This document shows, in pieces, positions 40,696-64,000 of a DNA stretch of 64,000 nt. The notes below the pieces were generated by a model. It saw only the letters and a list, made by a program, of their open reading frames with translations, did not search any database and was not told the origin of the DNA. Made by a program: the position numbers and the translations under genes. This DNA is from a virus, in the IMG/VR virus record IMGVR_UViG_3300034170_000100, positions 1 to 64,000 of that record. One strand, given 5' to 3'. Positions within the stretch are counted from its first letter, which is position 1; every line of letters starts with the position of its first letter.

Positions 40696-40701
40696 CAAGG
40701 A

Positions 40702-40781
40702 CGGGAGGGGCAGGATTCGAACCTGCGGTGACGAAAGTCACGACCTTATGGGAATGCATTAAACCGCTCTGCCACCCTCCC
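40702..40781 (-). tRNA. tRNA-Ser-like (class II) gene with truncated anticodon arm; pseudo-tRNA or tRNA mimic
   Basis: acceptor GGGAGGG/CCCTCCC, D arm GCAGAGCGGTTTAATGC, variable arm GTGAC-TTTC-GTCAC, T arm GCAGG-TTCGAAT-CCTGC, discriminator G; no regular anticodon arm. Confidence 0.75.
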
Positions 40782-40794
40782 ATGTAAAACAAAC

Positions 40795-60741: not shown

Positions 60742-61067
60742 CATTTTGCTCCTTTTTCAAAGCAATTGACGCAATTGACGCCATGTTGGGGGCCACCCAT
60801 ACCACGGATGACCGTATGGCATTCAACGCAGGAGATGACACAGGCAGTGGTTACCCTTCCTGGTTTTATTGCGAAGATTGGGGCACCATTTTTGGAATAG
60901 CCCAGCGGGGTATCCTCACCGATTTCGATGTACGAAATTTCGGTTGTACCTTGTTCATCCTGCGAAACTACACGAATAGCCGGGCCTAATGCACGGGTAA
61001 GTGTATCCATGACGCGAGTCTTACCGGAGCCGGTAGGGCCGGAGATTTCAATTTTAATACTGATCAT
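60741..61067 (-). CDS. hypothetical protein with P-loop-like and CxxC segments
   Basis: GPTGSGKT, CVEC, CVNC. Confidence 0.6.
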   Translation of the reverse strand: MISIKIEISGPTGSGKTRVMDTLTRALGPAIRVVSQDEQGTTEISYIEIGEDTPLGYSKNGAPIFAIKPGRVTTACVISCVECHTVIRGMGGPQHGVNCVNCFEKGAK

Positions 61068-61684
61068 GCTGCGTCCTTCTCACGAATTTTGACCATATGC
61101 GCTTTGCACACGGCCTTGATGGTTGGAATGTCCGCGTTCACAGGCAGAGTCACAGGAGTTGCCCAGTTCGGATAGAACAGGTCCAGTGCAGCGCCCAGTT
61201 TCACGGTGTCATGTTCAAGCTCCGGCAGTTCCTGCCAGGACATTTCTTCGATCAGCACCCGGTTGGCAAACTCCACCACTACTGGGTCATTTTTGATCAA
61301 GAGGTAGATAGAGTCATGAATCATAGCAACTGGTTTAATGTCGTACCGAAACGGGCTATCGTGCACACGTTTCATGAAAGCCACGGCAGCGCGGTTATTG
61401 AGCAGCCCATATGACTGTCCCATGGCATTACCGGCAGAACGGCCTTCAGCAGCGACTTCTTTAGGTGTACAATCCAGCCCTAGTACAGAACGGCCTAGCA
61501 TTGGGGTACGTAAACGTAAACCAAAGGCTACAGTTACGTACCCATCGACTGTTGCTTGTTTTAGGCGGTCCATGATGTATTCAGTGGAGGCTTTATACAA
61601 ATCGTGAAAATTTGCTTCGATGCGCTTGGCTTTATCTTCTGCCCAACCAAGATTCTTCATTAATGTCGCAAAAGTGCCTTGATA
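61064..61684 (-). CDS. DNA polymerase (family A), C-terminal segment
   Basis: reading frame YQGTFATLMKNLG..GNAMGQSYG..MIHDSIY (motif C); first ATG at 61660. Confidence 0.85.
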   Translation of the reverse strand, partial: YQGTFATLMKNLGWAEDKAKRIEANFHDLYKASTEYIMDRLKQATVDGYVTVAFGLRLRTPMLGRSVLGLDCTPKEVAAEGRSAGNAMGQSYGLLNNRAAVAFMKRVHDSPFRYDIKPVAMIHDSIYLLIKNDPVVVEFANRVLIEEMSWQELPELEHDTVKLGAALDLFYPNWATPVTLPVNADIPTIKAVCKAHMVKIREKDAA

Positions 61685-61686
61685 AG

Positions 61687-61830
61687 CTAGGTGAGAGCAA
61701 AGGTTGGGGCTTTGCTCTCTTGGCGTTCCTCCTTATAAAGTTTTGCGATGGAGTTAATACGGAACGTGTCATGCTCCGTACTTTCAATTACTTTGATGCC
61801 CTCAATGGGCGTGTTGATTTTTAGCACCAT
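61687..61830 (-). CDS. DNA polymerase middle segment (47 aa, motif B N-half; not in ORF track)
   Basis: AAGGA RBS; MVLKINTPIEGIKVIESTEHDTFRINSIAKLYKEERQESKAPTFALT*. Confidence 0.75.
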   Translation of the reverse strand: MVLKINTPIEGIKVIESTEHDTFRINSIAKLYKEERQESKAPTFALT

Positions 61831-62398
61831 TTATCCTTGCGCGGGTTACGCGCTGCAAATAGAGAGATTCGTCCAATTCACCTTCCAATCCCAACTCTTG
61901 TGCTATTTTCCGCACCTTAGTTGATAGAAAGGGTACTTTATATGGGACTCTTGATGTTAGGCTCTGATAAGACTCACCTTCGATGACGGCGTACAGACAA
62001 TCCACAAATTCTTCTTTAGTGAGTCTGGTTGTGTACACACGCAGCCCTTCGCCAATAGCGTGCAGCTTATTTTCTAGCGAGGTGACCCATTCAAGATTGG
62101 TGCGCGCGTTATTACTACGTACCCCATCCTTATGATTAACCTCTGGTTTGTTTTCTGGGTTGGGTATATGCGCAAGTGCTACAAGCCTATGTACATAAAA
62201 CGATGTGCCTACATTGCCTGCCCACAAGCTAACTTGAGGGTATTGGGTGTCTTTGTGTGGACTTTGACGTAGCACACGCCCCTTACGGGGGTAAGTCACA
62301 CCATCCCGTCCTACGATGATGCGATCTATTGACCGCACCACACCACAGTCACTTACTTCGTAAAGTCCCGTGTAATCAGGCACATTGGAGAAGTTCAT
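61802..62398 (-). CDS. NUMOD4-HNH homing endonuclease
   Basis: YEVSDCGVVRS (NUMOD4), VHRLVA, EVNHKDG..NN..NLEWVT..EN. Confidence 0.92.
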   Translation of the reverse strand: MNFSNVPDYTGLYEVSDCGVVRSIDRIIVGRDGVTYPRKGRVLRQSPHKDTQYPQVSLWAGNVGTSFYVHRLVALAHIPNPENKPEVNHKDGVRSNNARTNLEWVTSLENKLHAIGEGLRVYTTRLTKEEFVDCLYAVIEGESYQSLTSRVPYKVPFLSTKVRKIAQELGLEGELDESLYLQRVTRARINGAKNQHAH

Positions 62399-64000
62399 AC
62401 AGTTCCTTACCGGTCATTAAATTACCCAGGTACTCTACTTCCTCCGTAGCGTAAAAGCAAACGTCGGTATCACCAACCTTTGCTCGGTAACACACGGCAT
62501 TCTCCGGTGCCGTTTTAATATCTGACATCCGTTCAGGAAAGTATGCAAAAGCGCGTAAGCAGTGCCCATCATAACCGTCGATGTATACTTTCAGTTTGTT
62601 TGGGTCGCGTGTCGTCAAAGCAGAGATGTAATCTTCCAAAGATGCAAAATCTGCGCCTGCAAAGATCCATCCTGGCGGCCCCATGAACAGTTCCTTGATT
62701 AACTTACCGTAAGCGCTACCACTTGGTATATTTTGCATGTTTGGGTCGGAAGACGACAAACGTCCTGAAATTGTGCCGCCCAGGTTGAATACGCCATGCA
62801 AATAGCGCATGCCGTCGGCTTTGAGGATGCCATTCTCGAATGCAGGCATGAATGCCTGAATGATCTTGGTTACCGCTGAATAGTCGATCAATGCTTGCAG
62901 CAATACCACATATGGCTTGGCCGCTTCGTGATCGAGCAACTGCTTGATGATCTTGCCCCCGGTGGCTGGCGCCTTGGTGGGTGTCCGTGCAAGCACAGGC
63001 AAGTCCATCAGTTCGTACAACAGGCGGGCCAATTGCAATGGCGAGCCTGGGTTGAAGATCGTGTCGCTGAATTTCTCCAGCGGGTGCTGTTTCGTCTTCA
63101 GTTTGGCGTTGGCCGCCTCCATTGCAGATACCTGCAACAGATAGTTCAGCTTGGCCACCATCGGATCACTTTGGATAACGAGCAGGTATTCCTCCTGCAT
63201 CTTCTCCAGTTTTTCCTTGGTTTCGGTGACCTTCTTCGGGTCCATTGGCAAGCCCACCAACTCGACGTTGATGATCAGCTTCATGGAATCCTTCATCAGG
63301 CCGTCGTACAACTCCAGCTGCTGATCCTGCACCACGACAGGCATATGCTTGTCATAGGTGAAGTTCGTGGCCATACAGTCCACTCCGTTGTAACGGAGTA
63401 GGTTTGGCAGTGGAATTTTGCGGATGTCCTTGATGTCGTCCTCTGCGTAGTTGCCGGTGAACTCCTGGGACTGGTACTTCAAGCCGAGGGTGTTACCCGA
63501 GCATGAGTTGACCGAAAGGTAGCTGAGGATCTTGGTGCAATCCAGATTGCTACACATGATGTCCAGACCTTCCAGACAGCTCACGTAATCCAGCGGATCA
63601 CGCATCCAGAGGTTGTAAATCAGGTGCTTCACGTCAAACGTGGCACTGTGGAACCGCTTGGCGCCGATGTACTTCTTGAGGAAGTCCTTGAGTATTTCAC
63701 GAACCTCGACGTTGTCCTTGCGGTAGTGATAGTTCCCATCTTCGTCCTTTGCGCCCAGATCGTTCAAATCGACAGGGAATGCAATGAAGTCGTGGTGGGT
63801 CCAGGCTAAAGCGAAGGTGGCAATACCACATTCGTCCAGACGCAGGCTGTAGCCCTCGATGTCCATGGCAAGGTGGGGGAACTTGTGCAGTTCCATCAGC
63901 GCGTTGCGGATTTCGTTCGGGGTCTTGGGGTAGAACTCCGAATGGATGATCTTGTCACCAGGCGGCACGTAGTTGCCCAGCACTTTGCTGCACAGCGCGT
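62376..64000 (-). CDS. DNA polymerase (family A), N-terminal segment, truncated by window edge
   Basis: exonuclease DIEG, FD and YNGVD; GTISGRLSSSDPNMQN; motif A DFASLE; DGH. Confidence 0.93.
   Translation of the reverse strand, partial: ALCSKVLGNYVPPGDKIIHSEFYPKTPNEIRNALMELHKFPHLAMDIEGYSLRLDECGIATFALAWTHHDFIAFPVDLNDLGAKDEDGNYHYRKDNVEVREILKDFLKKYIGAKRFHSATFDVKHLIYNLWMRDPLDYVSCLEGLDIMCSNLDCTKILSYLSVNSCSGNTLGLKYQSQEFTGNYAEDDIKDIRKIPLPNLLRYNGVDCMATNFTYDKHMPVVVQDQQLELYDGLMKDSMKLIINVELVGLPMDPKKVTETKEKLEKMQEEYLLVIQSDPMVAKLNYLLQVSAMEAANAKLKTKQHPLEKFSDTIFNPGSPLQLARLLYELMDLPVLARTPTKAPATGGKIIKQLLDHEAAKPYVVLLQALIDYSAVTKIIQAFMPAFENGILKADGMRYLHGVFNLGGTISGRLSSSDPNMQNIPSGSAYGKLIKELFMGPPGWIFAGADFASLEDYISALTTRDPNKLKVYIDGYDGHCLRAFAYFPERMSDIKTAPENAVCYRAKVGDTDVCFYATEEVEYLGNLMTGKELYELLQCA

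Follow-up and report, generated by a model that had tools for sequence, protein, structure and literature searches.

A stop codon within motif B of an N4-like phage DNA polymerase: a five-base coding gap at the edge of a mobile nuclease cassette and a probable ribosomal hop

The family A DNA polymerase of an N4-like (Schitoviridae) phage is interrupted within motif B by five bases, TAGCT, that open with an in-frame stop codon and shift the reading frame. Comparison with related sequences indicates that these five bases very likely mark a programmed +5 ribosomal hop, in which peptidyl-tRNA-Thr would leave the message before the stop and re-pair beyond it. The gap forms the right-hand boundary of a mobile cassette, about 850 bp long, that comprises a polymerase tail, a NUMOD4-HNH endonuclease and a leader and divides the polymerase into two genes. 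Gaps of the same form, a stop codon followed by C and one further base between the Thr and Tyr of motif B, are present in 15 further contigs (12-13 distinct versions). A hop is favored over other readings because of the matched triplets that flank the gap, the use of three different stop codons, the conserved hairpin and SD-like motif on its 5' side, and the purifying selection evident downstream.

The sequence analysed here (the window) comprises positions 1-64,000 of IMG/VR record IMGVR_UViG_3300034170_000100, which is a complete 74.8-kb virus with terminal repeats. The polymerase lies on the minus strand from 64000 to 61064, and a search of the complete 74.8-kb genome found no second family A polymerase. 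The nearest public genome is that of Pseudomonas phage phCDa, in which the polymerase is a single gene of 877 aa. Relative to phCDa the window carries two insertions: TAGCT itself and a stretch of about 750 nt that separates MSDI from INSI. The N-terminal polymerase gene, encoding the exonuclease, the thumb and palm motif A (62376-64000, minus strand; Pfam DNA_pol_A, 2e-25), crosses the edge of the window and is an open frame of 712 aa in the genome. It shares 84% nucleotide identity with phCDa down to about 62539, near which phCDa-like sequence ends, to return about 100 nt beyond the gap.

The first of the cassette-borne segments is a 46-aa C-terminal tail of the N-terminal part (KTAPENAVCYRAK...ELYELLQCA; 62379-62516, minus strand), delimited by alignment with phCDa, phiAxp-3 and Zuri. 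It is missing from unsplit polymerases and kept in the divergent contig L003 and in other split polymerases. A free-standing NUMOD4-HNH homing endonuclease gene of 198 aa follows on the same strand (61802-62398; Pfam HNH_3, 1e-10, and NUMOD4, 1e-9), overlapping both the 3' end of the N-terminal part and the start of the C-terminal polymerase gene. The first 47 codons of that C-terminal gene, assigned from the ORF list and the alignment (61690-61830, minus strand), consist of a 23-aa cassette-borne leader (MVLKI...HDTF, 61830-61762) and then INSIAKLYKEERQESKAPTFALT, and they end in RQESKAPTFALT followed by TAG.

The elements around the gap are tightly packed on the minus strand. An SD-like motif, TAAGGAGG (61728-61735), stands 8 nt 5' of an mRNA hairpin of 10 bp with a 7-nt loop (61693-61719), whose arms GAGAGCAAAG (61719-61710) and CTTTGCTCTC (61702-61693) enclose the loop CCCCAAC (61709-61703). 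The 3' end of this hairpin abuts the candidate take-off codon, ACC, which encodes the Thr of motif B (61690-61692). The gap itself (61685-61689) is made up of the in-frame UAG (61689-61687), an invariant C and a U, and the candidate landing triplet, GCU (61687-61685), shares the last base of the stop. Reading resumes at TAT (61684), the Tyr of motif B, followed by CAA GGC, and the rest of the C-terminal gene continues in the shifted frame through motif C to its stop codon (61064-61684; Pfam DNA_pol_A positions 224-361), with 92% amino acid identity to phCDa. Alignment with the intact phCDa polymerase sets TAGCT exactly between the Thr and Tyr of motif B, RQESKAPTFALT/YQGT. The original prediction had held that removal of 61685-61689 restores motif B, and the alignment bears this out as an exact 5-base insertion. 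When the minus strand was re-read all of its coordinates proved correct, including those of the hairpin, a perfect 10-bp stem, and of the SD-like motif, and the ORF list places the next ATG at 61660, as had been claimed.

That prediction had also proposed an alignment with related Schitoviridae. The gap recurs in 15 other contigs. A search with a degenerate pattern covering motif B plus the insert recovered L003, a divergent virus contig of the same architecture, and a looser pattern, which accepted a stop-like triplet and any two bases, recovered 13 metagenome contigs. A profile search with the nuclease only, blind to the gap, added L216 and L218, both with a 5-nt gap. No gap was found in cultured phages, as blastn against GenBank phages returned uninterrupted alleles only and megablast returned phCDa only; the bacterial genomes searched gave no match.

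The 5-nt inserts seen are TAGCT, TAGCG, TAACG, TAACA, TAACT, TGACC and TGACT. All three stop codons are used, the fourth base is invariably C, and the fifth is variable. The triplets at which a tRNA would take off and land form the pairs ACG/ACG, ACC/ACC, ACT/ACT, ACG/ACA, ACG/ACT, ACG/GCG and ACY/GCT. In the TAA and TGA versions the landing triplet is a Thr codon built from the final A of the stop. In the TAG versions, the window included, it is GCU or GCG, a non-Thr triplet on which re-pairing requires a first-position G.U wobble. Among versions with TAGCT the pair is ACT/GCT in L003, L088, L090 and L093, ACC/GCT in the window and ACG/GCT in L098; take-off and landing differ in their third bases (G versus U) in L098 and also in L094.

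Two loci recovered with the nuclease profile carry longer gaps at the same place. In L219, whose nuclease shares 36% identity with that of the window, motif B contains the in-frame series CUC AGG UAA CUU (L219:3183-3200), and a 9-nt hop from Leu to Leu would restore the F-x-x-x-Y spacing. In L217 (nuclease 58% identity) the motif B gap is 41 nt long and bounded by ACG triplets (L217:3207-3250): an ACG is followed by a 38-nt stretch, with AUA UAA, a 9-bp hairpin with a UUCG loop and an AU-rich tail, and then by a second ACG just before TAT CAA GG. The 50-nt stretch from the L217 take-off codon folds at -21 kcal/mol, and in style this gap resembles that of T4 gene 60. The A-site codon after take-off is the stop in all 5-nt versions, and the corresponding sequence is AGG UAA in L219 and AUA UAA in L217.

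The hairpin and the SD-like motif accompany the gap. For 11 different alleles with the gap and 101 different alleles free of interruption, folding was compared over the 30 nt 5' of the take-off codon. Free energies range from -12.9 to -18.2 kcal/mol in the gap alleles (mean -14.4, window -13.3; n = 11), against a mean of -4.0 and a best value of -12.0 in the controls (n = 101), and the two sets are fully separated (Mann-Whitney p = 6e-8), although the gap alleles share ancestry through the cassette, and allele counts, like the joint presence of hairpin and SD-like motif, overstate their independence. With the same proviso, GGAG, GAGG or AGGA occurs in the 25 nt 5' of the hairpin in 11/11 gap alleles, versus 18% of the 101 controls. 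Hairpin and SD-like motif occur together in 2/101 uninterrupted controls (L206 and L213), both of them split-polymerase relatives of the cassette's flanks, with a weaker hairpin and a GGAG motif. L216, L217 and L219 have the SD-like motif as well, and in every version a motif of the GGAG type lies 1-12 nt 5' of the hairpin, encoded within differing peptides.

In the window the hairpin is built from synonymous codons not chosen by phCDa (GAG AGC...GCT CTC versus GAA TCG...GCC CTG). Across the gap alleles two base pairs have been altered on both sides, from GC to AU, and others have become G.U, a pattern that points to RNA structure. The 3' end of the hairpin falls at the take-off codon in every version: in L219, where take-off would lie one codon upstream, the hairpin is shifted by 3 nt likewise, and in L217 the stem is preserved by changes that even alter amino acids. 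L216 has lost the usual 5' arm, and there AAGAGCA, farther upstream, pairs with the same 3' arm. A 70-nt stretch of the window (61676-61745) folds at -19.3 kcal/mol (z = -2.9 against shuffles). The minimum-energy fold brings the SD region, UAUAAGGAGG, into pairing with the take-off codon, gap and landing triplet at the base of the hairpin; this extension is unconserved in the fold of the 11-sequence alignment, and pairing between SD region and gap was rejected as a signal.

Downstream of the gap the shifted frame runs without a stop for 194-208 codons in every complete contig, and dN/dS between gap-bearing pairs is 0.09-0.28 over this frame, which is under purifying selection.

A hop could proceed in the window as follows. 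The ribosome would arrive with the Thr codon ACC (61692-61690) in the P site and with UAG, then C, in the A site. UAG followed by C is a poor context for termination. Peptidyl-tRNA-Thr would unpair, the mRNA would slide by 5 nt, and the tRNA would re-pair on GCU (through G.U, C-G and U.G) or, in the TAA and TGA versions, on ACN. Decoding would restart at UAU and yield an intact motif B, ...KAPTFALT-YQGT..., with the junction peptide APTFALTYQGTFATLMK. Unprogrammed short hops in E. coli are inefficient. Here the hairpin, refolding behind the ribosome and perhaps anchored by pairing between SD-like motif and anti-SD, may pull the mRNA forward. That said, the 3' arm of the hairpin would be inside the ribosome, in the mRNA channel, at the moment of take-off. 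The only tRNA in the window is a tRNA-Leu with anticodon AAG, recognized by ARAGORN (40699-40782, minus strand); a link between it and the CUC codon that precedes the take-off site is pure speculation.

The original prediction missed two aspects of the locus, the restriction of hairpin and SD-like motif to gap-bearing alleles and the mobile HNH cassette. Every gap contig that extends far enough upstream, L095 excepted, has a homologue of the HNH nuclease (57-72% identity) immediately upstream of the gap, and this close nuclease is absent from all 81 uninterrupted controls that include 1.5 kb or more of upstream DNA (0/81). The edges of the cassette are visible in pairs of contigs. L088 and L090 are about 78% identical upstream, 97-100% identical from about -800 to the gap, and 84-90% identical downstream. 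L089 and L097 are identical for 4 kb up to the gap and fall to 70-89% within about 20 nt, and L086 and L091 are identical over the 85 nt that L091 has upstream of the gap before falling to the same 70-89% within about 20 nt. Such near-identical cassettes with sharp edges in diverged backgrounds point, at the level of sequence, to lateral transfer of a free-standing HNH cassette. By analogy with MobA and gene 60 of T4, the gap most likely protects its carrier from the carrier's own nuclease, whose target would be the DNA of uninterrupted motif B. The exception, L095, has a TGACT gap with the pair ACT/ACT and with hairpin and SD-like motif (L095:875-939), in a polymerase that is unsplit at the usual site and has no nuclease there. 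This state may reflect partial co-conversion or loss of the nuclease, in a contig of only 1.15 kb.

The site at which the polymerase is split has a wider history. Four viral contigs, L112, L165, L166 and L206, are split at the same site and have similar tails with motif B uninterrupted; the breach holds unrelated small ORFs or, in L206, almost nothing. The split site appears to attract gene insertions. Its occurrence with similar tails, and with neither nuclease nor gap, means that it is older or more widely used than the gap. Further interruptions are found in the N-terminal gene, where L092 has two more HNH-like ORFs, about 2.3-2.6 kb and 1.3-1.5 kb upstream of the gap, and L086 and L089 have additional frame changes and an insertion of about 500 nt. 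The polymerases of L092, L086 and L089 are hosts to several mobile elements.

The nearest nuclease in a cultured phage, at 52% identity, is that of Acinetobacter phage nACB1 (OQ032511), and its gene lies within a group I intron in motif B (Rfam 41 bits, E = 8e-9, below the gathering score). The probable intron is 843 nt long (L099:2844-3686), contains the HNH gene and interrupts motif B; in GenBank the polymerase pieces are separate "DNA polymerase" CDSs. From the P1 pairing (GCGU/AAA with UUUGCGC) and the terminal G, the junction can be read as TTT GCG T-intron-TA ACA TAT, which would put it 5 nt upstream of the gap position. These arrangements would fit a family of nucleases directed at motif B DNA, with two different ways of making the interruption tolerable. 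The original prediction had listed a remnant of a lost intron among its options, and the presence of a related HNH gene in the nACB1 intron, 5 nt upstream, lends this indirect support. Descent of the T4 bypass from an intron is a published idea (PMC5009743), and the position of the nACB1 intron, 5 nt from the gap, fits that proposal.

Given this neighbor, the five bases might conceivably be missing from the mature mRNA, whether spliced out as a micro-intron, edited away or skipped by the polymerase, which would leave the mRNA collinear with the protein; the gap could descend from an intron like that of nACB1. A group I intron within the window was sought and rejected: no match to RF00028 was found in 61000-63000 at E <= 10, with the 41-bit nACB1 intron as a positive comparison. 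Rfam finding no intron in the window, and 5 nt being too short for a ribozyme, RNA-level removal is very improbable. We know of no mechanism for removing 5 nt in bacteria or phages, and no homopolymer that could support transcriptional slippage is present. Nor would removal explain why the gap always opens with a stop, continues with a constant C and is flanked by matched triplets. An intein or split intein was also considered and rejected. The three ORFs occupy different frames, the two tails add up to only about 70 aa, and the Cys of CYRAK is unconserved, being replaced by Ala or Pro in relatives.

Equally improbable is the absence of any recoding, with the locus making three polypeptides: the N-terminal part, a 47-aa peptide ending in FALT, and a C-terminal part begun either at the ATG at 61660 or by termination-reinitiation via the SD-like motif. 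The many relatives that tolerate a two-gene polymerase lend this some plausibility, as does the presence of an SD-like motif upstream. The break would, however, fall inside motif B, between its conserved Phe and Tyr, and the codons for YQGTFATL, which run from the gap to the first ATG, remain conserved. No conserved start codon exists 3' of the gap: the Met of TLMKN (ATG 61660) is Val in several lineages, with GTC, GTA or GTT at this site in L086, L089, L095 and L098. No start codon lies at a working distance from the SD-like motif, and the matched triplets would again go unexplained.

The frames would also be joined by a conventional frameshift, -1 or +2, ahead of the stop, and the target frame is in fact open for about 16 codons upstream of TAT. 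This is a shade less probable still. There is no slippery site of the form X XXY YYZ, and tRNA-Thr could not re-pair at -1 (CAC) or +2 (CUA); the sequence CUC ACC UAG C offers no re-pairing at +1 either. A shift at ACC in the -1 direction would add two residues between Phe and Tyr, and one farther upstream would substitute residues of motif B. The record being an uncultivated virus genome, an assembly or sequencing error, or a defective genome with a dead polymerase, might be suspected, but the chance of this is negligible given that gaps of this type are found in 15 other contigs, which come from different samples and have divergent flanks, that the downstream frame is under purifying selection and that dedicated signals co-occur with the gap. 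Of the four options entertained by the original prediction, then, a hop is strongly supported by the comparative evidence, assembly error is excluded by 12 other distinct natural versions of the gap, and a simple frameshift does not fit for want of a slippery site or re-pairing.

Taken with its longer relatives, the proposed hop in the window probably belongs to a homing-endonuclease-linked bypass family in DNA polymerase motif B of N4-like phages that has so far gone undescribed, with gaps of 5, 9 and 41 nt. The 5-nt gap would be the shortest natural programmed hop, and nACB1 would stand as a living intermediate between intron and bypass. It is likewise probable that the members share a module consisting of an SD-like motif, a hairpin ending at take-off, a stop and a matched landing triplet. 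The literature searched held no description of bypass in N4-like polymerases. If the hop is real, it represents an independent and much shorter bypass system in another essential gene and another phage family. The natural variants (5, 9 and 41 nt; three stops; several triplet pairs; shifted and rebuilt hairpins) would then amount to a ready-made mutational series from which to learn what makes a ribosome release and land. A selfish nuclease could, on the same premise, shield its carrier by inserting bases where a gene is most conserved, and leave the protein unharmed. There is also a warning for annotation, since phage polymerases called "frameshifted" may be intact.

Published precedents for such an event are the stop-hops and T4 gene 60/MobA (PMC5009743; bioRxiv 10.1101/2022.08.31.505936). 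In stop-hops a peptidyl-tRNA leaves the codon that precedes a stop and pairs with a matching triplet a few nucleotides downstream (PMC5009743), as proposed here, and CUC AGG UAA CUU in L219 has the classic Leu-stop-Leu form. Stop-hops are, however, low-level events in artificial sequences, whereas the polymerase gap is a natural site in an essential gene, conserved across divergent phages and flanked by dedicated signals.

The hop proposed here can also be set beside two other kinds of natural precedent. The prfB (RF2) gene uses a programmed +1 frameshift between overlapping codons, with an SD 3 nt from the shift codon. Both systems have a stop followed by C in the A site, first-position wobble in P-site re-pairing and an SD-like stimulator upstream. 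The move proposed here differs in being +5, and the SD-like motif lies 28-36 nt upstream in the linear sequence, with the hairpin in between. Group I introns with HNH homing endonucleases are found in phage DNA polymerase genes, as with I-HmuI of SPO1 and in T7-like phiI. As in these, the probable target of the nuclease is interrupted and the polymerase kept functional, and the nACB1 intron in addition encodes a related nuclease (52% identity) and is inserted in the same motif, 5 nt away. The window differs in lacking a ribozyme, and its nuclease gene lies outside the gap, between two polymerase genes.

The closest parallel is the T4 gene 39/mobA/gene 60 cassette with its 50-nt bypass, reportedly described by Huang in 1988 and by Bonocora in 2011. 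In both systems an HNH homing endonuclease gene has divided an essential replication gene and furnished each half with a tail; a further short insert, with an in-frame stop directly after take-off, is found 46-47 codons from the start of the downstream gene. Both have matched take-off and landing triplets, an SD-like element with mRNA structure, and recombination edges indicative of mobility, and in both the gap can be kept where the nuclease is lost, in gene 60 relatives without MobA and here in L095. The differences are equally plain. The host gene here is a family A DNA polymerase, interrupted in motif B, rather than the large subunit of topoisomerase II; the phage family is Schitoviridae; and the gap is 5 nt rather than about 50, with a landing triplet that overlaps the stop. 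A 5-nt gap has no room for a take-off stem-loop or an SD within it, and the window has instead a conserved hairpin ending at the take-off codon and an SD-like motif 5' of that hairpin. No signal in the nascent peptide was recognized. The T4 gene 60 cassette has been reviewed (PMC5009743), and its homologues were surveyed by Manning and Atkins in a 2022 preprint, which reports the cassette in topoisomerase genes only and terms it unique (bioRxiv 10.1101/2022.08.31.505936). Bench experiments have established programmed bypassing in T4 gene 60 and in the yeast mitochondrial byps (PMC5009743), whereas the polymerase gap is known from sequence. The nuclease gave no match to T4 at E <= 1e-20. The polymerase gap is analogous, not homologous, to T4 gene 60/MobA.
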